Assembly (NCBI GenBank): GCA_963718515.1
Contig: OY970354.1
Span: 46,363-110,362, forward strand
Reading direction: 5' to 3'
DNA length: 64,000 bases
DNA from: an uncultured bacterium
GTDB lineage: Bacteria; Patescibacteriota; Minisyncoccia; UBA6257; 2-01-FULL-56-20
Part shown: piece by piece, positions 632-34,281 of the stretch
Layout: every line of letters starts with the position of its first letter
Position numbering within the stretch: the stretch's first letter is position 1
The notes under the pieces: model-generated
Told to the model about the DNA's origin: nothing
Seen by the model: only the letters and a program-made list of their open reading frames with translations
The model's database searches: none
Translations under genes and position numbers: made by a program

Positions 632-3463
632 CTACTGCGGCTGAGGGCAACCGGCGCCGTTCGGATTCTGTTCACAGCGTCCCAATCCACCAACACTCAC
701 TTGAACAGTAGACTGTGTTGTCGCGCCGGCAAACCCACCGTTCGTGCAGTCCAATGTGTAGACCGTGGTCGCCTCAGGATCGACGGTGCTTGATCCGGTT
801 ATCGTATTAGAACTCCCCGGGGGGAATAAGGTAATCGTTGCAAAGTTGGGATCGGTTGCGGAAAGCGTGCAGGAGGTCACCGGAGTGCAGGAGTATGTGA
901 GTTGTGACGTTTCTGGAACCACGACATTTGTAGGATTCGCGGTGAGTTCCGGAGAGCAAACGGGCTGGCAACTGGCGTCGCTTGGCGCACACACCGGCAA
1001 ACCAGTCACACTGATGGTTGCATCGGCTGAGGTGCCATCCGGCAGAGTGCCAGTGACCATAGCTGTCCCCGTCGCCGTCGGCGAGTATATACCGGAGGAG
1101 GAATCTATGCTCCCCGGGCCGGCGAGCAACGCCCACGTTACGCTGGACTGTGTGGTGCCGCCAAGAGAAAGCGTGCAGTCGCTCGTCTGACTAAGGTCGA
1201 TAGAGCCCGGAGCGCAGGTTGCGGTGAGGCTCGAAACAACGGCACCGCATGCGTTTGAGCAGGATGTGCCCGCGCCGGTTGAACTTGCTACACAAGATCC
1301 AGCGCCGCACGCATACCCTCCTGGTATTGACGTAACCACTACGCTTGCATCGGCTGAGGTGCCATCCGGCAGAGTGCCGCTGATCATGGCTGTTCCCGTC
1401 GTCGTCGGCGAGTATATACCGGAAGAAGGATCTATGCTCCCCGGGCCGGCGATTACCGCCCATGTTACGTTGGACTGTGTGGTGCCGCCAAGAGAAAGCG
1501 TGCAGTCGCTCGTCTGGGTAAGATCAATGGTACTCGGAGAACAACTTGCACTGAGGCTCGAAGCGGGAACGCCGCATGCGTTGGAGCAGGATGTGCCTGT
1601 GCCGAGCGCGCTTGCCATACAAGAGCCAGCAGAGCACGCGAAACCATCCGGACCAGGCGTGACAATGATTGTCGCTTGTGCCGAACTGCCGCTAGACAAA
1701 GTGCCCTTTACGTTTTCCGGGCCCGTCGAGGACGATGGAGTATACACGCCCGATGCATTGATGCTACCTGTGCTTGCCGGGCCGGCCATCGCCCATGTGA
1801 CTCCTCCCAATTGCTTAACACCATTAACAAAGAGCGTGCACTGACTGGTTTGGCTAGTATCAATAGAACTCGGCGAACAGCTTGCGGTAAGCACCGGGGG
1901 CGGCACCACTGCCGTTACTTTCAGAGTGACGCTCACCGTTTGAGTCGGTAATTTTGACACTCCATTATAGCCAGTAAATATAACTTGCCCCGTATATGAT
2001 CCTGTCGGAAGAGTCTTCACCACCGCTGAGTTGAAAGATATCGTCGCATTTTCAGGTGCGCTTCCTGACGATCCATTAGTGATACCGGGGGCAGGATCTC
2101 CTGCGGGCGCCACCAACCAGTTGCCACCGCTTGTGGTTTTGGCGCTAGCCGTCCACGTCAATGTAGAATATGGGGCGCCGATATTGGTCACCTTAGCAGT
2201 ATCGGTATTTGCGCCGGTCCACGTGGTCGTGAATGATCCTGGGGTGACCTGCATGACAGCGTCTGGTGTCCAAAGTATCGTAAAGCCGGTGGGGGTCGAC
2301 GACGAAATTTGTTGCGACGTTCCCTGAGAGATCGTGACCGCCTGTGCAACCGTGCTGAATACACTATCCACCGCCAGTCTTAATGACACTAAGAAACTGC
2401 CTCCGTTATTAACAGCAATCGGCGTCGCTTCTATCGATTGAAAGCTGTAATCGTATACGCCCGTGGAAAGCGATTTCAAAGGTATTTGATATAAATTTGG
2501 TTTTCCATTCGAACTATTCAACACGGGAAGTCCGGGATACGTCCGCTTTGTCCCCGTGCATGGAACGTTCAGATATTCACAAACATCCGTGCCAGCCACA
2601 TTGCCATTTAGCGCCCATGTGGCATTGACGAGAGTTGAGGTATTATCGGCGTTCTCCGAAGTGACTACAATTGTGCCGACGGCAACGGGTGCGCTGACGG
2701 GTGCATTCACCGTAACATTAGCAGAATCACTTGCACTGCCGCCCGGGCCAGTGCAAGTGATATCGAATGCTGCGGTGCCGGTGGCATTTGGAGTTTCTGA
2801 TTTTGTTCCACTGGTTGGCACCGCGTTCTTCCATGTTGTCCCATCATTTGTGCCCGAAGCGACGCAGGCAGTGGCATTCGTCGTTACTATAGTAAGAAGT
2901 GTTGAACTTCCGAGGGTGATCGTGGAAGGTGATGCGGTGAGGGAAACGGTGGGAGCGGGCGTCGCAACCCCATAGGTGCTTGTTGCGATCAGATCATCGC
3001 CGAGATTATCCACATAGGTGACGGTAACAACATGTCGAGACGTCAAATTGTCCTTAAAGCTAAAGGAATATGTTCCCTCCTCCGGATTGCCTAGATTAGG
3101 ATTGCCCTGGCCGCCGAATCCTGCGCAGTTTTGTGTGGTGGCAGATTTTGTAACAGTATAATCCACTGTATCCCCTTTCCCCGTGTCGGTCGAATAATTA
3201 AATGCACTTGTGGCTCCGCCTTCCGGTAAGGGCACGTCGATCGCGTGACCGCCGGCGCAAACGGTCAGTATCGTTGTAGCTCCTGCCTGATAGTTCCCCG
3301 ATACCGTGACGGTGCTACCGGAAACCGACACGCCCATACTGAGCGATGCACCATATTGATTGTTGTCCGCCTTTACCGTCGGAGCACTCATAAAATATGA
3401 TCCCAAGACGGCTACGATCGCGACAAGGCTTATAAAAAGAAACCTCTTTTTTATATTATGCAT
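632..3463 (-). CDS. large secreted repeat protein (Ig-like modules separated by Cys-rich linkers)
   Basis: ORF 632..3652 trimmed to the ATG at 3463, which gives MHNIKKRFLFISLVAIVAVLGSYFMSAPTVKA, a signal-peptide-like start. It has three ~109-aa repeats of the type SCSPSxIDxxQTSxCTL...GAGTSCSNACG, and the C-terminus is Cys-rich. Confidence 0.75.
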   Translation of the reverse strand: MHNIKKRFLFISLVAIVAVLGSYFMSAPTVKADNNQYGASLSMGVSVSGSTVTVSGNYQAGATTILTVCAGGHAIDVPLPEGGATSAFNYSTDTGKGDTVDYTVTKSATTQNCAGFGGQGNPNLGNPEEGTYSFSFKDNLTSRHVVTVTYVDNLGDDLIATSTYGVATPAPTVSLTASPSTITLGSSTLLTIVTTNATACVASGTNDGTTWKNAVPTSGTKSETPNATGTAAFDITCTGPGGSASDSANVTVNAPVSAPVAVGTIVVTSENADNTSTLVNATWALNGNVAGTDVCEYLNVPCTGTKRTYPGLPVLNSSNGKPNLYQIPLKSLSTGVYDYSFQSIEATPIAVNNGGSFLVSLRLAVDSVFSTVAQAVTISQGTSQQISSSTPTGFTILWTPDAVMQVTPGSFTTTWTGANTDTAKVTNIGAPYSTLTWTASAKTTSGGNWLVAPAGDPAPGITNGSSGSAPENATISFNSAVVKTLPTGSYTGQVIFTGYNGVSKLPTQTVSVTLKVTAVVPPPVLTASCSPSSIDTSQTSQCTLFVNGVKQLGGVTWAMAGPASTGSINASGVYTPSSSTGPENVKGTLSSGSSAQATIIVTPGPDGFACSAGSCMASALGTGTSCSNACGVPASSLSASCSPSTIDLTQTSDCTLSLGGTTQSNVTWAVIAGPGSIDPSSGIYSPTTTGTAMISGTLPDGTSADASVVVTSIPGGYACGAGSCVASSTGAGTSCSNACGAVVSSLTATCAPGSIDLSQTSDCTLSLGGTTQSSVTWALLAGPGSIDSSSGIYSPTATGTAMVTGTLPDGTSADATISVTGLPVCAPSDASCQPVCSPELTANPTNVVVPETSQLTYSCTPVTSCTLSATDPNFATITLFPPGSSNTITGSSTVDPEATTVYTLDCTNGGFAGATTQSTVQVSVGGLGRCEQNPNGAGCPQPQ
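1019..1672. repeat. intragenic tandem repeat, period 327 bp (two well conserved copies; a third diverged copy follows)
   Basis: catcggctgaggtgccatccggcagagtgcc occurs at 1021 and 1348. ggactgtgtggtgccgccaagagaaagcgtgcagtcgctcgtctg occurs at about 1145 and 1472. The offset is exactly 327 nt (109 codons). Confidence 0.85.
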
Positions 3464-26064: not shown

Positions 26065-29000
26065 CTAGAACTGGCCGCCGACCGGAGACGTCAGACTGAC
26101 GACCGTGATCGGTACCTCATTCGAAGTCAAGCCAATGATCGACGTCGTACCATTCGAACCATCGACATACGTGAAGTCGTTGGAACCATTAATGGTCGCG
26201 TTGAGTGATTGAGCCTGTTGGGCAATTGCCGGAATCTGGCTCAAGTCAGCCCACAGCGTGAACGTGTACGAACTGCCTGCGGTTATGACCGGCGACTTGT
26301 TCGTTGACGTCGCGAAGTTCCACTGGATGCTGTTGGAAGATGTAGCTTCCGTAGCCCAGAGGTCGGACGTTACGATGTTGTTGCCGCTCGTATCCTTCAG
26401 CACGATCGAGTTGACGAAGCCTGGCGTCGTCGTAGCAGCAGCACCACCAAGCGTCAGTTTCAGCGTGCTCGGAATGTTGTCACCCGCAGCGTTTGAAGTG
26501 AAGGTGATCGAACCGATCTGCTGGTTTGGAGACGCCGGAGGCAAGCTCGAAGCCGAAGAAGCTGACACCGCGAGGATGCTTCGCAAGGTCGTCTGGAGGT
26601 TGCCATTCGCACCTGAGAGGGTCACCCCGGCGGTCTTGTTCGACGTTGCACCACGAGCAACCACAGCGAGTGATGTCGTGCTGTTATTCGAATCAGTCGT
26701 CGTTGCGATCTCAAACTGCGAGGTCGTGTTATCCGAGAGCGAACCGTTGGTGTACGATCCCGCATTGCCCTTGAGGGTAAGCGTGACCGAATTGCCCTGC
26801 GGAACGATCAACGGATTGGTGAAGCTGTTGAAGACATAGATGTAACCCGTACCCGACGCATCAGGGGTCGGCGATTGAGCAGTGCCGAGTTCCGTGGAAC
26901 CATTCCACAAACTGACATTGCTGAACGCGGCCTTGACGGTCGTGGTTGCGGAAACCACATCCAAGACATTCAACTGCGTAACCTTTACGTTCTCAACGTT
27001 CGAAGTTTCCGTGAAGCGGAAGGCTGCGAGCGTGTCACCCGTGGAGTTCTGGACGATCTGGCCTGCCGGAGGATTGCTCGAATCTGCAGCAATCGTCAAG
27101 GAAGGATTACCGTTGAAGCTCACCGTCTGGCCGGCATACGTGGTGTTGCTCGGGATATTCACCGAAGTGAACGAAACCGCGCCGCTACCCGTGTAACCGA
27201 CAAGCGATGTCGCAGGGGTAAACGTGCCCGTTGCCGAAGACAACGAATCCGCATACACATCAACATTGATCGTCTGACCGGCCGGGACGTTGAAGGCCGA
27301 ACCCGAGAAGGAATACGTTCCTTCACCGGATACCACTCCTTGTGTCGTACCGAACTGCGTTCCATTCACCAAAACTTTGAGGTTCTGGAATGCAGATGCG
27401 GTGCTGTTAGGAGTGAGCTCAACGCTTACCGTGTTAACGTTCACGCCTTCAGCCGAAGAAGCGCTGAATGCGTATGAACCGATCCTGATGCCCGTCGTAC
27501 CAGCGGAAACATTCTGGCTTCCGAGAGCGTTGTTCGTCGATACCGACAAGCTCGAAGATACGAGCGTCAACGAGACACCCGATACGCCGGAAGTGTTGGC
27601 TGTGCGGCTGGACGTCATACCCTGCAAGTTGCTGTTATCGCCCGTCAAATTGGCGACGATACTAGAGAAACTTGCTGTGGTCTGAATATCCGCTTTGATG
27701 CTGAGGACACGTGTCGTGTTCGCCGGAACAATGTAATTGATCGGCGAAGCGGACGTGCCAAAGCAGTCATTGTAGACACCAGTGCCTGTCGAAGTCGAGT
27801 AGCTGGCTACTGCAGCCGTACCAATGGTACCGCTACCCGATGCGCAGTCATTGCTTGACGGAGGCTGGTTGATCGTAGTGCCAACCTGATTGCCTGCATC
27901 ATCGGTGATCTCAACATTTTGGATCTGTTGGTTAAGAGCCAAAGTGTTGTTCTGGCCGGAGAGTTGGATGTTGAAGTCGAGGTACTTTACCTTGACCGGT
28001 TCACCCGCTGCATAGACATCGTACTTAGCCAACACTACGCCGGATTGACCCTTTGCAATGTTGCCCGTCGGGGTGTTCGAATCCTGAGTGACAGTGATCT
28101 GTCCCGTCAAGATATTCACCGGGGTTCCGGGACCGCTAATGTTGTTGATCGAGACCGGAACGTTATACTGGCTGTCAACAGCCAAAACATCGTAGCCGTT
28201 CAAGATCTCGAACTGGAAGAAGTCGCTCGGAGAACCCATTACGTCAGCAACGATCTGAACATTGTTGTTTCCCGTGTTCAGCTTCGCCGGAGCGGCGGAA
28301 GCATCGAAGTCGGCGAGGCCCGAGGCCGGAACCGAAGCCAATGTTGCGCCAACCTGCGTGCCGTTCACGAGCAACTTTACGTTCTGGAGGTTCGCATTAT
28401 TTGCGGAACCAATGACGTGGAAGTTGATGTTATTCAACCATACAGGGCTGTTGCCAACCGTGAAGTTCCACGAACCAACAATGTTGCCCTGCGTACCAGC
28501 CGTCACGGTCGTACCGATTGAGGTCGAAGCGACGGATACGGTTGCGAGGGAAGGATTCGTGACGGACGTTACCGTGAAGACATTACCCGTCAACGGGAAC
28601 AAGCCGGTCGAAGTGATCGCATTGTTGTTGGCATCCCACGCGGTCACATCAGATGCCGCCGGCATAGCGAAGGCAGTGGTGTTACCCGCGGAGAGACCGC
28701 CCGAAATATCAATCGCGAGCGTGAGCGTGACGGTCTGGCCTGCCGGAATCGACAAGGTCATACCGGAGAAGCTCAATAAGCCCGAGTTGAGCGAATTGTA
28801 CTGGGAGAGCACCTGACCATTCTCGATCAAGTATGCACCAGAAATTGCGCTATCCGACGAGAACGCCCGTCTTCTGGAAGTTTACGCCAGAGAGGGTTAC
28901 CGCGCCCGAGTTGCCGGCGGTGAAATTCACTGCCAACACCGGAACGCGCGCCGAACCCGAGCTTGCGCTCGAGATCAACGAGCCGGCCGCCGGATTAGTG

Positions 29001-29502
29001 GAAGCCAAGCTGACCTGCAAACCGGTCGCCGGAGCGGTCACCGTAGTGCCCGTGCCAGTCGTGGTCGTAGTGCCCGTCGAGCTCATCGAATTGACGAACG
29101 CGCGGGTCTTAGGACCGAAGTAACCTACCGAAGGGGTGATACCGTTCGCCGCCTGGAACTTCCGCGAGCGCTGACTGTGTGAGGGCGCCGAAGTAACCGG
29201 TCGGGGCAGAGACTGCCGTAAGATATCCCTTTGCAATCAGGAGCGACTGGAGTGCCGAAACCTGCGAGCCTGTGGAACCAACGGTGAGGTCGCTGGTAAA
29301 GTCATAGGTCATCGCGGTCGTCGCCGCTGCCAGAAGTTCCCAATTGGCTTTGAAGCTGTTGGATCTGCGCGAGCAAAGCCGCGATCTGAGCCTGGAGGCT
29401 CGCCGTGGACTGTGCATTCGCGAGAGGCAACGCGGCTGCGCCAACCATCCACAATACTGTGGTGGCGGTGAGTGCCGCTGAAACCAATTTTTTATAATTC
29501 AT
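26065..29502 (-). pseudogene. giant surface protein (signal peptide, coiled segment, PG_binding_1-like domain, long Ig-like beta-rich body) with three frame changes confined to its 5' 700 nt
   Basis: The fragments are 29302..29502 (MNYKKLVSAALTATTVLWMVGAAALPLANAQ), 29109..29444, 28850..29236 and 26065..28830. The homologous N-terminal module of the 21578..24793 protein is reconstructed only by joining frames. Confidence 0.7.
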
Positions 29503-29721
29503 TTTTAATTTAATTATCGATTTATTATTGGTATCGACCTGAGAATCCTTTATGGACTCTGTGAGCCGTCGACCTTGCCGTGCACCAAATCACGTTTTTG
29601 TTTTCTTGTTTCAGGAACCGTTTCCGGCACTTCACTCTATTCGCTCGAACGGCCGCCTCGTGAGGGAAAGCGACGACCGATCAAATAGAAGAGAGCGACG
29701 AAAACGGGGTTGATTATCTAA

Positions 29722-29814
29722 AAAAGAAAAAACTCGCTTTTGGCGAGGCTGAAAAAACAAGAAAATCGACCATCAAAAAGTCCATTCTCTGCGGTTCAGC
29801 CTCACACCGAACCT
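29722..29814 (-). ncRNA. possible short transcript or leader ending at an internal terminator
   Basis: In minus sense a TTGACC-N19-TATAAT promoter (29851-29821) is followed by a GGCTGAA...TTCAGCC helix and then CTCGC-caaaa-GCGAG plus TTTTTTCTTTTTT (29749-29720). The spacer is long, so the promoter call is weak. Confidence 0.25.
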
Positions 29815-29948
29815 TTTACTATTATACTGTCCGCTATGAGAAAAGGGTCAAATTAACTGGGGAAAACTTCCCCAGAACCCCCTACTTCTCACGGCACATT
29901 AGATAACGTCCGAGCGGATGAAAGGTTACCCTATTTCGCCCAAAAAGT

Positions 29949-30644
29949 CTATGCCGCCTGGGTCACCCGATAGAACACCGACGGTCCAGCGATTCCCACC
30001 CGCTCAATGAGATTTTGTTCAAGGAGTGTTTGTAAATCATAGCGAATAGTTCTCTCACTGCATTCCGGCAAAATTTCCTGAATATCTTTCAATCGGCAAT
30101 TGCCGGATTGCCGGATTCTATCCAAAATTGCCGTTTGCCGGATTGCCGATTTCAATATGCTGTTTATATTACTTGGCTGGTTTTGTTCTTCTTCCGTTGC
30201 CGGTTCTTCTATTTTTGCCGGTTCGATTGCCGATTGCCGGATTATTGCCGGTTCGGACTTTTTTGCCGGTTCAGGTTTCTGGAACGGTTCGCGCTCCGAT
30301 TTAGAGAATATTTCGGCAACGTCTATTTCCTGTCTTTTTACCTTATTCTTTGATTCGGCAATTGCCACATCCAGGACATATATCTCCTGAAGGATAATAT
30401 TGCTATTGGCAATCGCTATAAGGTTCACGTCTCCCGCAAACTTTATAAGGCACTCTGTGACCCGGAGAGATCGCTCCGCCATCGCATAATCCTCCGCCGT
30501 TGCCGCTTCCAACAATCCGGCACCACCTGCCCGGAGCCTTTCGGAAAAATCTTTTTCCTGCATATTCGCCGCCAAACGAAAGATCGCATAGGCTATCTCA
30601 TACGATTTGGTGAGAATAAAACGCTCTTTGCCGGATTCTTTCAT
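29949..30644 (-). CDS. DeoR-type winged-helix regulator with an N-terminal helical-bundle domain and an EPA-rich linker
   Basis: ORF 29949..30680 trimmed to the ATG at 30644. The C-terminus ILDRIRQSGNCRLKDIQEILPECSERTIRYDLQTLLEQNLIERVG matches the DeoR HTH pattern. Confidence 0.6.
   Translation of the reverse strand: MKESGKERFILTKSYEIAYAIFRLAANMQEKDFSERLRAGGAGLLEAATAEDYAMAERSLRVTECLIKFAGDVNLIAIANSNIILQEIYVLDVAIAESKNKVKRQEIDVAEIFSKSEREPFQKPEPAKKSEPAIIRQSAIEPAKIEEPATEEEQNQPSNINSILKSAIRQTAILDRIRQSGNCRLKDIQEILPECSERTIRYDLQTLLEQNLIERVGIAGPSVFYRVTQAA
30096..30117 (+). repeat. left copy of a 22-nt perfect inverted repeat GCAATTGCCGGATTGCCGGATT
   Basis: Its exact reverse complement occurs at 30657-30678. 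This copy lies inside the coding sequence and encodes IRQSGNC. Confidence 0.9.
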
Positions 30645-30651
30645 ATGGCGG

Positions 30652-30680
30652 ATTATAATCCGGCAATCCGGCAATTGCAA
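30652..30680 (-). promoter_or_regulatory. consensus-like promoter TTGCAA-N17-TATAAT ending 7 nt before the ATG (leaderless geometry)
   Basis: -35 at 30680-30675, -10 at 30657-30652, ATG at 30644. Confidence 0.6.
30657..30678 (-). repeat. right copy of the 22-nt inverted repeat, forming the promoter spacer of the same gene
   Basis: The plus strand reads aatccggcaatccggcaattgc. It overlaps the TTGCAA -35 box and abuts the TATAAT -10 box. Confidence 0.9.
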
Positions 30681-30704
30681 GAAATACGGCCTTTTGCCGG
30701 ATTG

Positions 30705-31419
30705 CTATAATACCCAGCGAGCGGAGGCGGTGACGATGACGAGCAGGGTAAAAATGATGGCGGACGTGGCGAATATCTTCTCCCGGGAAAGCTCGCCAAA
30801 AATGTAGCGGGGCACGAGATCGATAAATATCGTGGCGATAAGGAATACAATTGCCGATTGATAAACAAAGTCGAGCGGAAGGAAAAGTCCAACGATCAAG
30901 ACCTGCCATATAAGAACGAACGAAACCCAGCTCATCATGCGCACGAACGCGCGGCCTTCTTCGGGCGAGACCGCGAAATTTTTTACGAAGCTCGATGCCA
31001 TCGCGCTCATTGCCCATGCGACGAGAAGGCTGTATAGAAGCGACAGGCCCCCAAAATCTCCGCCCGCTTTCATGAAAAAGCTCCGCACCAGCAAATACGT
31101 GAGTATAAGCACAAGGATCTCATATGCCGACTTGCGATCGATGATGAGGAGATCCTTTATGAGAAGTATGAGGTAAAAAATACCGGCAAGGAGGACGGCA
31201 AAGAAGAGGTTCGGCGCCTCAAGAAGAGAAATAACAAGCACAACCAAAAACGGCAGCCGCAACCCTTCCGCTTCCTGCGATTGGGAAGAAATAGAGATAA
31301 AGCGCGACGAAGAAAAACAACCAGAATGGGAGCGCCAGCCACGCGGCGGCAAAAACAACGGCCCTAAGAACTAAAGACCAATGAATTCGCTTTAAAATTG
31401 ACTTTAACTTTTCCGCCAT
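30705..31419 (-). pseudogene. polytopic membrane protein, one frame change near 31260
   Basis: The N-terminal part (MAEKLKSILKRIHWSLVLRAVVFAAAWLALPFWLFFFVALYLYFFPI) lies in ORF 31219..31461. The rest lies in ORF 30705..31358. The start is uncertain because it overlaps the clpB 3' end. Confidence 0.5.
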
Positions 31420-34050
31420 CTTTGAATTCGCCGCGGATGATCTTATCCGCCAACCTATCAAGGATAACCTTCTGCATCAATCGCTTCAAGGGGCGCGCGC
31501 CATACTCCGCGCTGAAGCCTTCCTTTGCAAGGTGCGCGCGCGCGGCCGGCTCGATCTCGAGCTTGATGTGGCGGTCCGCCAGGCGCTTTTCGATGAGCTT
31601 GATCTGGATGTCCACGATCTTCTCGATATCCGCTCTTGCGAAGCGGGTTGAAGATGACGACGTCATCGATACGGTTCAAGAACTCCGGGCGGAAGCTGCG
31701 ATCGCAATGCCTCCATCACTTTTTCGCGATAATCCCCTTCCTCGAGCGATGCTTCGTTATCTTCCGAGCTAAAACCAATGCGCGACATGGCCTTGAGATA
31801 TTCGCTTCCAACGTTCGACGTCATGATGATGATCGAGTTCTTGAAGTTGACGGTCTTGCCCTTGCTATCGGTAAGGCGGCCATTGTCGAGCACTTGCAAA
31901 AGCAAGTTGAACACTTCCGGATGCGCCTTTTCGATCTCGTCAAAAAGGATCAGGCTGTATGGCCGATGGCGCACGATCTCGGTGAGCTGGCCGCCTTCTT
32001 CGTGGCCCACATAGCCCGGAGGCGAGCCGATCAACCGGCTGACCGCATGCCGCTCCATATATTCGGACATATCCACGCGCACGAGCGCCTTTTCATCGTT
32101 GAACATAAATTCCGCGAGCGCCCGCGCGAGCTCGGTTTTGCCGACGCCGGTCGGGCCGAGGAACATGAACGATCCGATCGGGCGGTTCTCATCCGAAAGC
32201 CCCGCGCGCGAGCGGCGCAATGCCGACGCGACGGAAGCGATCGCCTCGTCCTGGCCGATCACCCGTTCGCGCAAAACCTCTTCGATGCGAATCAGCTTGT
32301 CGCGTATCGGTCTCAAGCATCCGCTTTAAAGGAATGCCGGTCCAAACAGCGACGACCGCGGCAACGTCCTCTTTATCCACTGATTCCTTTAAGGAACCTG
32401 TCGGTCGTGGCGCCGGTTGCCGTGGCGGATGAGGAATTCTTTGATTTCCGCGATTTTGCCGCTGCCGGGCCGCCAAAATTCTTCTTTTCGAACATCTGAA
32501 AATCCTTCTCGGCTGCGGGCAATTCGCCATAAATGATCTGCGCCACACGCTCAAGATTGCCTTCACGCTCGGCCACTTCCGCCTCGCGCTTTAAGTTATC
32601 CACTTTTTGGCGAAGCTGGTGCAAAGTCTCGAATTTTATCTTTTCCGAATGCCATTTGCTTGAAAGCTCGTCGTTCTGCTCTTTTAATAGCGCGAGTTGT
32701 TTATCGATCTCTTTGATCCGCTCGTGGTGACGCTTTTCTGCCCTTCTTTGACAAGCGCCTGCTTTTCGATCTCCAGGCGCGTGATCTCGCGGCGCGCCTG
32801 GTCAATTTCTTTCGGCAAACTCTCCGATCCAAGCCGGCGCGCCGCGGCGGCTTCGTCGATAAGATCCACCGCTTTATCCGGCAAAAAACGGTCGGTGATG
32901 TAACGCGCGGAAAGATTGACGGCCTCGATGATGGCCTCGTCGCTGATGCGCATGCCATGATGGATCTCATATTTTTCTTTAAGCCCGCGCAAAATAGAGA
33001 TCGAATCCTCGATCGATCGGCTCCTCTACTATGATCGGCTGGAAGCGCCGCTCGAGCGCCGGATCCTTCTCTATATATTTCTGATATTCGCGGATGGTCG
33101 TCGCGCCGATCGCGTGCAGTTCGCCGCGCGCAAGCGCCGGCTTGAGCAAATTCGAAGCATCGATCGCGCCTTCGGCGGCACCCGCGCCGACGATCGTGTG
33201 GATCTCATCTATAAATAAGATAATATTGCCGGCCGCGTTCTTCACTTCTTTCATAAACGCTTTCAAGCGATCTTCAAATTCGCCGCGGAATTTTGTTCCG
33301 GCGATGAGCGATCCGAGATCGAGCATCAACACCTGCTTGCCCTTAAGAAGCTCCGGCACGTCGCCCGAGGCGATGCGCTGAGCCAATCCCTCTACGATTG
33401 CGGTCTTTCCAACGCCCGGCTCGCCGATAAGGCACGGATTGTTCTTGGTGCGGCGCGAAAGCACCTGCATCAAGCGGCGCAATTCTTCCTCGCGGCCGAT
33501 CACCGGATCAAGCTCGCCTGCCTTGGCTTTGTCGCTCAAATTGATCGCATATTTTTCCAACACCTGGAATTTGCTCTCCGGCGTTTCGTCCGTGACGCGC
33601 ACCGAACCGCGCAACTGCGCCAAAACCCGGAAAGCGCTCTCGCGGCGGACGCCAAATTTTTCAAGCAACGATTTTGCCGTACCTTGCACATCGAGGAGCG
33701 CCAGCAAAAGATGTTCGCACGAAACAAATTCATCTTTTTGCTGCGCAGCAATCTTTGCCGCCTGGTCGAGCACTTTCATCAATTCCTGCGAAAGATAGAG
33801 CTGGCCGAGCGCGGAATTGCTCACGATGGGCGGAATGCGATCGAGCTCGAGTCTCGATCTGTTCATCCAGCTGTTCGAGATTGACCCCGGAGCGCTCGAG
33901 CACCGGAATGACGAGCGACTGCTCGTCTTCTAATAACGCCGCAAGCAAATGAAGCGATTTCAACTCGCCATGATTCTTCTTTGCCGCGATCTCCTGCGCA
34001 TTCTGCAAGGCTTCCTGCGCTTTTATAGTGAAACGGTGAAAGTTTGGCAT
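31364..34050 (-). pseudogene. clpB: ClpB chaperone (AAA+ disaggregase), multiply frame-disrupted
   Basis: The homology passes through fragments 33730..34050, 32979..33866, 32684..32992, 32373..32624, 31663..32316 and 31364..31666. Both Walker A motifs are present ([16 protein letters not shown]), as is the middle coiled-coil. At least five frame changes. Confidence 0.85.
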
Positions 34051-34161: not shown

Positions 34162-34189
34162 ATTATAGCCGGCGGGCGGGCATTGTCAA
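34162..34189 (-). promoter_or_regulatory. consensus promoter TTGACA-N16-TATAAT upstream of clpB
   Basis: -35 at 34189-34184 and -10 at 34167-34162. The palindrome TGATATATATCA follows the -10 box directly. Confidence 0.6.
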
Positions 34190-34281
34190 TCTCGGGGTGA
34201 GATTGCTAATGGCATCTTATTCCCCTGCTGGCCGCTCTGCGAGCGTTGCTTGCGGGGTTATCTCCTGCCCGGCCCGCCCGT

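Follow-up and report, generated by a model that had tools for sequence, protein, structure and literature searches.

We describe a short DNA motif repeated throughout and around a small regulator gene of an uncultured, ultra-small bacterium of the Patescibacteriota, in a 64-kb stretch of contig OY970354.1 (hereafter the window, whose own numbering is used throughout). The motif fills the spacer of the gene's core promoter in one orientation and recurs within the coding sequence mainly in the other, and both groups of copies are conserved across distant homologues. With moderate confidence we read them as a conserved self-operator array, in which the gene product would repress its own core promoter, aided by the intragenic sites through looping or multivalent binding. 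Comparison of homologous sequences inclines us, just as moderately, to extend this reading to a Paceibacterota-wide family in which each member would carry such an array.

A repeated motif in the regulator gene

The hexamer TGCCGG occurs 10 times on the plus strand, at 30101, 30109, 30136, 30198, 30216, 30235, 30246, 30264, 30629 and 30695, and 4 times on the minus strand, at 30065, 30517, 30660 and 30668. These 14 copies fall within about 650 bp (30060-30710), against 65 copies in the other ~63 kb, that is about 0.7 per 650 bp. An earlier note on this DNA had the plus-strand count right and gave three minus-strand copies where there are four; its chance expectation of well under one is indeed under one, though not well under it. 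The longer 10-mer TTGCCGGATT is stronger evidence than the hexamer. It has 8 copies in the window, every one inside 30100-30703. When up to one mismatch is tolerated, 10 matches are found inside 30062-30703 and 8 elsewhere, the latter number corresponding to the chance level (7.9 per window expected from shuffling). The repeated unit can be written (N)CGGCAA(T), the preceding base being C in 110 of 201 copies and the following base T in 113 of 203. The spacing of neighbouring units is mostly 8 bp (61 cases) and next most often 7 bp (21 cases).

Two arms of this array, 30096-30120 and 30654-30678, form an inverted repeat of 25 nucleotides with 96% complementarity. The earlier note had reported its exact core, 22 nucleotides at 30096-30117 and 30657-30678 bracketing 539 bp, had placed the first copy in the helix-turn-helix-coding part of the gene and had placed the second in the spacer between a TTGCAA -35 box and a TATAAT -10 box; all of this agrees with our own direct reading of the region. 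What shows up as an inverted repeat is the pairing of two tandems, that of the promoter and the best conserved of the intragenic ones. The features of the locus are as follows.

29949-30644, minus strand: regulator gene, 231 amino acids, open reading frame (ORF) intact.
30652-30680, minus strand: core promoter, with -35 box TTGCAA (30680-30675), 17-nucleotide spacer TTGCCGGATTGCCGGAT and -10 box TATAAT (30657-30652).
30657-30674, minus strand: predicted promoter operator, two tandem 8-bp units TTGCCGGATTGCCGGATT, reverse relative to the gene, filling the -35/-10 spacer.
30657-30678: promoter arm of the exact 22-nucleotide inverted repeat, GCAATTGCCGGATTGCCGGATT as read on the minus strand.
30096-30117: coding arm (site C), AATCCGGCAATCCGGCAATTGC on the gene strand, codons R176-C183 (RIRQSGNC), first helix of the winged-helix domain.
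30125-30152: site B cluster, with units at 30128, 30135 and 30143 on the plus strand; the segment encodes KSAIRQTAI.
30197-30272: linker array, with units at 30197, 30215, 30227, 30234, 30245 and 30263 on the plus strand; the segment encodes the disordered EPAK/EPAIIRQSAIEPAK/EEPA stretch.
30062-30071, minus strand: reverse unit TTGCCGGAAT, codons L192-P193 (ILPE), 26 nucleotides downstream of site C (46 nucleotides start to start).
30628-30637: site D, forward unit in codons 3-6 (GAA TCC GGC AAA), 19 bp downstream of the promoter tandem and inverted relative to it.
30646-30666: near-palindrome centred on the -10 box, with halves TGCCGGATTA and TAATCCGcCA and one mismatch.
30694-30703: forward unit 14 bp upstream of the -35 box, symmetric to site D.

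The promoter and its units

TTGCAA-N17-TATAAT is the best sigma-70-like match of the region (10/12). The start codon, ATG at 30644, lies 7 nucleotides past the -10 box and is not preceded by a Shine-Dalgarno sequence, two features that point to a leaderless transcript; judged from the sequence, the regulator mRNA is probably of this kind. The same architecture, TATAAT-N7/8-ATG without a Shine-Dalgarno sequence, occurs again in homologues, and folding prediction gives the leaderless mRNA an unstructured 5' end.

The units of the window promoter form a nearly symmetric layout: a forward unit at 30694, the two reverse units at 30657-30674, the partner on the -10 box and the forward unit at 30628. 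The -35 box TTGCAA itself carries on the unit register, and in loci L021 and L023 of the comparison described below a unit occupies the expected position of the -35 hexamer. The palindrome on the -10 box is perfect (TGCCGGATTATAATCCGGCA) in L008, L014 and L018, and CCGGCA at +10 is found again in homologues. No conservation of the forward unit at 30694-30703 was seen among the homologues compared.

A separate promoter-like site, TTGCCG-N16-TATATT, lies antisense in the coding region (30143-30170, plus strand) and takes a unit as its -35 hexamer; its score of 9/12 is the regional chance level.

Conservation of the units among homologous loci

Thirty-three independent homologous loci, including the window, were compared over a range of 32-70% amino-acid identity. 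The promoter sequence cTTGCAATTGCCGGATTGCCGGATTATAAT is retained nearly base for base in L002, L003, L007, L008, L010, L011, L014, L018 and L155, nine loci whose proteins are about 51-63% identical to that of the window and whose sequences further upstream are unrelated. Recognisable variants of it extend down to 32-40% identity. Within 120 bp upstream of the gene, a reverse tandem was detected in 20 of the 33 loci with a strict pattern and in 26 with a loose one, and 29 loci have at least one reverse unit upstream; wherever an upstream tandem is present, it is reversed. In the coding region, conversely, a forward tandem was found in all 33 loci and a reverse tandem in none. The earlier note had suggested checking whether relatives that keep the coding repeats also keep the promoter copy. 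The promoter copy is conserved, an outcome that favours function.

The length of the inverted repeat between promoter and coding region was compared in 24 loci. Exact repeats of 18-22 nucleotides between promoter and site C are present in 9 of them, as well as in L151 and L152; the count rises to 10 of 24 if L014, with a 20-nucleotide repeat to a linker copy, is included. The longest exact promoter-versus-coding repeat is just 8-11 nucleotides in 7 of the 24, and the motif is kept in all. The promoter spacer of L012, CTTGCCGCATTTCCG, is the exact reverse complement (15 nucleotides) of site B in its own gene. In L151 and L152, a change of TCC to ACC in the coding arm (IRQTGN) is matched by A to T in the promoter, preserving an exact repeat of 22 and 18 nucleotides, respectively. 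Variants in L153, L154, L155 and L023 are unmatched between coding arm and promoter. These sequences suggest that the arms occasionally exchange sequence or are jointly selected. We did not retain a systematic covariation between promoter and coding region: one matched change (L151/L152), one subfamily switch (L012) and three to four unmatched variants are suggestive, not decisive.

The promoter cluster (-31 to +16) and the intragenic cluster (+370 to +580) are both conserved, and they lie within looping range of each other. The distance from the promoter tandem to site C is about 500-680 bp across homologues, and at such a loop size phasing matters little.

Two of the homologous genes are interrupted, that of L003 by an in-frame TAG (3331-3333) at codon 111, between bundle and linker, and that of L018 by a 1-nucleotide insertion at about 3420, just ahead of the first linker unit. 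Slipped-strand phase variation was considered and discarded, since neither interruption shows gain or loss of a unit.

Nucleotide-level constraint on the intragenic units

The codons of site C, I177 to C183, were compared in 23 homologues, where ATC was found 16 times, CGG 22, CAA 23, TCC 21, GGC 23, AAT 23 and TGC 22. The informative codons are CGG, TCC and GGC, whose background use is 37-43% of their codon families, and CAA was also counted as such; AAT (65%) and TGC (91%) are already common codons and bring little information. Similarly, R169-Q170 of site B is written CGG CAA in 19-20 of 22 homologues, Gly5 of site D is GGC in 17 of 17, and L192-P193 is TTG CCG in 18 of 19, against a background use of TTG of 19%; the reverse unit at L192-P193 is absent in L005, L019, L020 and L023. 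The Arg codons R176, R184, R198, R201, R215 and R226 vary freely, as do other conserved Leu and Gly codons. The N-terminal-domain coding part has no conserved unit, and in the window it has one single-mismatch copy only (30514-30523). Synonymous sites being nearly invariant exactly at the conserved units, the comparison argues that the coding copies are selected at the nucleotide level.

The contribution of the peptide was assessed by resampling codons with the protein held fixed. For the window gene, with codons redrawn from the window's own usage (3000 draws), CCGGCA was observed 11 times against 1.5 expected (maximum 7 in 3000 draws) and AATCCGGCAA 5 times against 0.13. For 22 homologues, with codons redrawn from the neighbouring genes (1000 versions per gene), CGGCAA/TTGCCG was observed 289 times against 43.6 expected, every gene exceeding all 1000 of its resampled versions. 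As the observed numbers are far above those obtained with the protein fixed, it is codon choice and not the peptide that creates the motif; peptide repeats, to which some copies had previously been attributed, can be dismissed as their source. On the sense strand, CGGCAA occurs at 12.9 copies per kb within the gene and at 1.07 per kb in 113 kb of flanks, a 12-fold difference. The copies are spread over the three reading frames (58/79/66), and the units of the coding region comprise 203 forward and 86 reverse ones.

Three tandem units, (CCGGCAAT)x3, translate to PAIRQSGN. Reading the motif in successive frames thus yields both the conserved IRQSGN helix and PAIRQ, a linker peptide that recurs in 42 of 114 homologues; it is the peptides that derive from the motif and not the reverse. 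Linker arrays occur in every homologue, with 5-23 units that differ in position and frame. In L017, the true start lies upstream of the tblastn match and a CGGCAA run (2935-3060) encodes an N-terminal extension MRQNGNGNRQDNRQSGK; its linker holds about 20 further CGGCAA units.

Occurrence of the motif outside the gene

Neither an exact 10-mer nor a strict tandem was found in the rest of the window, or outside the gene in three 20-kb neighbourhoods (L145, L146 and L147). About 113 kb of flanks of the homologous loci yielded two strict tandems only, in L018 at -281 and in L019 at -836. Apart from these two, the ~280 kb of related DNA that we examined has the motif in the regulator gene only. The one in L018, at about 2720, sits inside a neighbouring small gene (peptide YPAIRQ), and the one in L019, at about 2125-2170, is an intergenic inverted pair next to small paralogous ORFs; each is a possible extra target.

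Metagenome contigs were also scanned with the 17-mer TTGCCGGATTGCCGGAT, giving at least 120 loci. Among the matches listed, ten have a recognisable homologue by tblastn, to which a promoter fragment at a contig end (L070) can be added. As a search for a regulon the scan was abandoned: the other listed matches are due to chance or to 8-mer microsatellites of unrelated organisms, and are uninformative on other targets. Two contigs with no regulator homologue, L064 and L101, share TTGCCGGATTGCCGGATTAAATC..ACGGCAAAACCCGATAA; their tandems lie about 250 bp (L064, 1158-1440) and about 150 bp (L101, 1370-1540) upstream of a YraN-like ORF (MNNVETGKIGE...), among other palindromes (GTTTTACGGAAAACAC). 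We treat them, like L109, as leads only.

The regulator protein

An AlphaFold2 model of the monomer (22-sequence alignment, mean predicted local distance difference test score, pLDDT, of 77.7) divides the protein into a four-helix bundle (residues 5-106), a disordered linker (115-158) and a DeoR-like winged helix (159-227). The bundle is modelled confidently and the linker has a pLDDT below 50. Residues 169-216 match PF08220 (HTH_DeoR) with E = 8e-8 and 32.4 bits for a cut-off of 21, and a weak match to HTH_12, the winged helix of RNase R, was also obtained; by Foldseek, the C-terminal domain resembles DNA-binding domains of the HxlR/ArsR/MarR type. The regulator is not a canonical member of the DeoR family. 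The DeoRC sensor domain (PF00455) gave no match in it, its helix-turn-helix is C-terminal and not N-terminal, and the DeoR/GlpR equivalogs of NCBIfam score 12-25 bits only against cut-offs of 250-350.

Neither Pfam nor NCBIfam gave a match for the first 115 residues, and PF05635 (23S rRNA-IVS / S23) gave no Pfam match to the bundle even at E <= 10. Foldseek aligned the bundle with 2gsc/2rld, of the S23 / 23S-rRNA-IVS type, at a template modelling (TM) score of 0.78 (target 0.72-0.79), a root-mean-square deviation of 1.6 Å and a weak E = 2.5e-3, with five chains of 2gsc (A-E) among the matches. A PDB sequence search with this domain returned designed ankyrin repeat proteins (DARPins), which were discarded as spurious. 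The fold family of 2gsc/2rld also includes Avd, the accessory protein of diversity-generating retroelements (DGR). Avd is a pentameric barrel (PMC6182149). We take this model-based likeness as a lead on the oligomerisation of the bundle, not as a result.

In all, 572 homologues were detected, those with a named source being labelled Paceibacterota or Pacebacteria. A protein identical to that of the window is encoded on an 829-kb contig. Our literature search found no paper describing the regulator family or the motif.

Proposed autoregulation

The short asymmetric unit (N)CGGCAA(T), usually in a tandem pair with an 8-bp period, would be the binding unit. Two reverse units fill the -35/-10 spacer, and others extend over the -10 box, the start of transcription and codons 3-6, so that a bound product would block the access of RNA polymerase, resulting in negative autoregulation of the leaderless transcript. 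The product itself would combine an N-terminal bundle that probably oligomerises, a flexible tether of about 45 residues and a C-terminal winged helix. The denser cluster of 10-20 forward units, 370-580 bp downstream in DNA coding for the linker and the first helix, would act as auxiliary operators, raising the local repressor concentration and stabilising promoter occupancy through looping or bridging. Intragenic units may also block read-through from the upstream clpB-membrane-protein genes. An oligomeric bundle with tethered winged helices would suit sites that are irregularly spaced and of mixed orientation, and the modelled architecture fits multivalent binding. An operator array for autoregulation with DNA looping was among the proposals of the earlier note. 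Such an array is favoured by the promoter conservation, the synonymous constraint and the privacy of the motif; binding by the gene's own product, repression, the oligomeric state and looping are what we infer from this layout.

Several points weigh against this proposal. The product would be identified as the binder through the co-occurrence of gene and motif and through the restriction of the motif to the locus, and with about 8% of this genome covered by the scan, further targets of the motif may exist. The period of 8 bp, sometimes 7 bp, is too tight for adjacent winged helices to be accommodated next to each other on the same face of duplex DNA, so the units would not all be occupied together. 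The distance from promoter to array shifts by tens of bp between homologues with no evident helical phasing, and 7 of the 33 loci have no recognisable tandem in the 120 bp upstream. N-terminal oligomerisation is suggested by a weak fold resemblance (the Foldseek E-value given above) with no match to a sequence family. The uniform forward orientation of the linker units has a simpler explanation in slippage-type duplication. Moreover, forward units give R, Q, P, A, S, G and N while reverse units give L-P or C-R, so that orientation is explicable by coding constraint, the forward residues being polar or small and suited to a disordered linker; the reversal of the promoter units can in turn be explained by their supplying a TTG-type -35 box. 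The inverted-repeat relation may then be a by-product of two separate constraints.

A bolder version of autoregulation, which we consider rather unlikely, treats coding sequence and operator array as one co-evolved object, a self-nucleating platform for a multivalent, possibly pentameric, tethered winged-helix protein. The IRQSGN helix and the linker peptides PAIRQ, SGN and NPA would then be three-frame translations of the protein's own units, a notion to which we give only slightly more than marginal weight. There is likewise a slim chance that such an array sets or buffers copy number (one molecule is about 100 nM in such small cells), and, as another outside chance, that its role is a chromosome-level one, centromere-like or fork-barrier-like, and not ordinary gene regulation.

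Alternative explanations

An action of the units in RNA, where forward units of the mRNA would serve an RNA-binding protein (possibly the winged helix itself) or pair with reverse units, seems unlikely to us, and so does the variant in which the promoter copies matter only in read-through transcripts, by pairing with the +10 unit and burying the start codon. The sense-strand bias of the coding region and the weak HTH_12 match would agree with such an action, as would two predicted hairpins, one formed by site C with the L192-P193 unit (-23 kcal/mol, z = -2.9) and another around the AUG of a read-through transcript (-20 kcal/mol). Since no terminator was found between the stop codon of the upstream gene (30705) and the promoter, read-through RNA with promoter units is plausible. 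However, the best-conserved copies lie in the -35/-10 spacer, which is not part of the predicted leaderless transcript of this gene; the read-through hairpin does not stand out (z = -1.6), and 4 of 22 homologues have lost the L192-P193 partner though they retain site C. Rfam gave no family at gathering score or at E <= 1, and all hairpin pairs being invariant, compensatory covariation cannot be scored in support of an RNA element. We find it similarly improbable that the promoter operator alone is functional, with the intragenic copies arising as by-products of slippage expansion, gene conversion and conservation of the IRQSGNC protein segment. The linker array does vary in number and position like a birth-and-death process, its 7-8-bp tandem spacing dominates, the linker is disordered in the model and the arms now and then change together, as expected of gene conversion. 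But synonymous positions at conserved units are nearly invariant over the whole identity range while neighbouring codons drift, all 22 genes tested exceed their codon-resampled versions, and a neutral microsatellite would not last in every lineage at a 12-fold excess. Another doubtful candidate is a different factor for which the regulator gene would be the target, for example a nucleoid protein, a global regulator or, given the likeness of TTGCCG to a -35 hexamer, sigma region 4. The units in -35 position in L021 and L023, the unit register of the window's own -35 box and the tandems upstream of the YraN-like ORF in L064 and L101 could be accounted for in this manner. A global factor should nonetheless have sites elsewhere, whereas the motif accompanies the gene in 33 of 33 loci and is private to it in the other ~280 kb.

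An iteron-like nucleoprotein site with a non-transcriptional function (centromere, replication origin or fork arrest) on the gene of its own binding protein is very unlikely. It would account for 10-20 short direct repeats in the linker-coding part of a DNA-binding protein's own gene, for the opposite orientation of the two groups of units and for a sign change of the GC skew near 30 kb, the cumulative GC skew of the window peaking near 28-30 kb. The third-position skew favours C over G on the coding strand, and genes are mostly on the minus strand to the left and mixed or on the plus strand to the right of ~36 kb. Because the skew in this way tracks the coding-strand switch, its peak is poor evidence for a terminus. 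In three genomes the direction of the genes stays the same across the locus, for at least 8 kb on its upstream side and 7 kb on its downstream side, which argues against an origin or a terminus; dnaA, dnaN and par genes were not among the neighbours seen, those in the window being FtsK, RecA and RNase H-like proteins, and the conserved synteny is chromosomal, not that of a mobile element. Given the strand-explained skew, the continuous gene direction and the neighbouring genes, a replication terminus or origin at the locus was rejected as an explanation. The invertible segment put forward in the earlier note, a phase switch in which recombination at the 22-nucleotide arms would flip 30118-30656, part the -35 box from the -10 box and split the gene, we regard as extremely improbable, and the inversion junctions that it predicts, TTGCAATTGCCGGATTGCCGGATT joined to CTATCCAAAA, as having hardly any prospect of existing. 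Exact inverted repeats of 18-22 nucleotides in the window and at least 10 homologues, and a matched substitution in both arms (L151/L152) compatible with inter-arm exchange, speak for it. Against it, all 33 loci and the homologue-bearing metagenome contigs are colinear, with no inverted form in any, and the Pfam lists for 10 kb on each side in L145-L147 contain no integrase, resolvase or invertase family. The flip would destroy the coding sequence, cutting the gene in two, and bring in a poor -10 box (TTCTAT). Furthermore, 7 of 24 loci keep the motif with an exact repeat of 8-11 nucleotides only, 13 of 33 have no strict reverse tandem in the promoter, most constrained units are direct in orientation and irrelevant to inversion, and site C variants are usually unmatched in the promoter (L153-L155, L023). 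For a recombination hotspot, the note's remaining proposal, we found no evidence beyond, at most, a hint of occasional exchange between the two arms.

Neighbouring genes

The conserved synteny comprises clpB, a membrane protein, sometimes a small protein or a nucleotidyltransferase, the regulator, a leader of about 450 nucleotides and a large PG_binding_1 surface protein. The window locus shares this organisation with L145-L147. Control of neighbouring genes by the motif was considered and rejected, as no unit was found at the clpB promoter and none in the surface-protein leader. A CIRCE-like repeat (controlling inverted repeat of chaperone expression), TTAGCAATCTC-N5-GAGATTGACAA, overlaps the TTGACA -35 box of the clpB promoter (34183-34209, minus strand), and clpB is probably under HrcA-type control, not under this regulator.

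The non-coding leader of the surface-protein gene (29503-29948, minus strand) could be aligned across 19 loci and is a conserved feature of the family. Its elements are a hairpin at 29793-29813 (GGTTCGGTGTGAGGCTGAACC), the terminator-like CTCGCCAAAAGCGAG with a T-run after it (29733-29747), and GGTCGA blocks that occur repeatedly. Rfam gave no match to it. One possibility is that this region is a structured 5' leader or attenuator, as yet unnamed, of an envelope gene with high expression.

In the window, clpB (31364-34050) and the surface-protein gene (26065-29502), both on the minus strand, are each broken into several overlapping-frame ORFs. Their orthologues are unbroken, with ClpB of 856-888 residues in L145-L147 and surface proteins of 1089-1194 residues in L145 and L147, which suggests either indel errors in a long-read assembly or pseudogenes. 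Finally, L149 carries an opposite-strand rve-type integrase/transposase gene upstream (51-1277), replacing the clpB-membrane protein pair; it looks like an isolated insertion.

Significance and comparison with known systems

To our knowledge, almost nothing has been established experimentally about transcriptional control in the Patescibacteria (candidate phyla radiation, CPR), which have very few regulators. The present finding offers a phylum-wide regulator family, a precisely predicted binding unit and a testable promoter architecture that appears leaderless. It further illustrates dual coding in a natural sequence with unusual clarity: an array of cis-elements runs through a coding region in three frames with synonymous sites frozen. 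Part of the peptide is imposed by the array, among it a helix in the DNA-binding domain that is presumed to read it. Codon-based selection analyses misread such regions, and the case bears on how disordered linkers evolve and on how minimal cells build autoregulation. Should the array have functions beyond transcriptional regulation, this would suggest an organising site of a new type on the chromosome.

The logic of a promoter operator with auxiliary intragenic operators is known, and the present case is an unusually extreme form of it: the array lies in the regulator's own gene, is dense, and consists of short units in three frames. Auxiliary operators acting through DNA looping include lac O2 inside lacZ, gal OI inside galE and the O1, O2 and OE operators of E. 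coli DeoR. In these LacI, GalR and DeoR systems, as predicted here, a primary operator overlaps the core promoter and more operators lie hundreds of bp away in coding sequence; the cooperative occupancy by an oligomeric repressor that we propose follows the same logic, and the DNA-binding domain is DeoR-like. Here, by contrast, the auxiliary sites are in the regulator's own gene, number 10-20 rather than one, are read in three frames and are asymmetric 8-bp units where those systems have palindromes of 16-20 bp. Unlike DeoR, the regulator has no C-terminal sugar-phosphate sensor domain and carries its helix-turn-helix at the C-terminus.

A closer parallel to the array itself is ori-lambda, where four 19-bp iterons in the part of gene O coding for the interdomain linker serve the initiation of phage replication. 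In both cases a repeat array lies in DNA coding for a flexible linker of the presumed binder, and the peptide is largely a by-product of the DNA element. The present gene differs in being chromosomal, syntenic and phylum-wide, in having units in the core promoter as well, and in showing no origin features. Very short units are also recognised by the omega repressor of pSM19035, a ribbon-helix-helix protein with arrays of 7-bp heptads, all upstream of genes, while the RepE and pi initiators bind direct iterons of about 20 bp in plasmid origins together with an inverted-repeat operator in the rep promoter. The present system resembles these in its very short units of variable number, direct and inverted, and in using the same unit at the promoter and in an array elsewhere; it departs from them in its predicted tethered winged helix on a helical bundle and in an array placed within chromosomal coding sequence.

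Binding sites in or at the gene of the DNA-binding protein, with an autoregulatory role, are further known from parS inside spo0J and from the Ter sites at the rtp and tus promoters. Those sites are single, 16-30 bp long, have many more chromosomal copies and function in segregation or fork arrest. The putative site studied here shares with those of ParB/Spo0J, RTP and Tus its location in or at the protein's own gene, but the locus has no sign of a terminus or origin and the proteins have no sequence or domain relation. The invertible promoter switches fimS and hin, finally, have in common with the window short inverted repeats around a segment of a few hundred bp with promoter elements. Here, unlike there, no recombinase occurs in the checked neighbourhoods and no inverted alleles were seen, the segment holds most of the gene, and the repeat is one pair among many copies of a putative binding motif.

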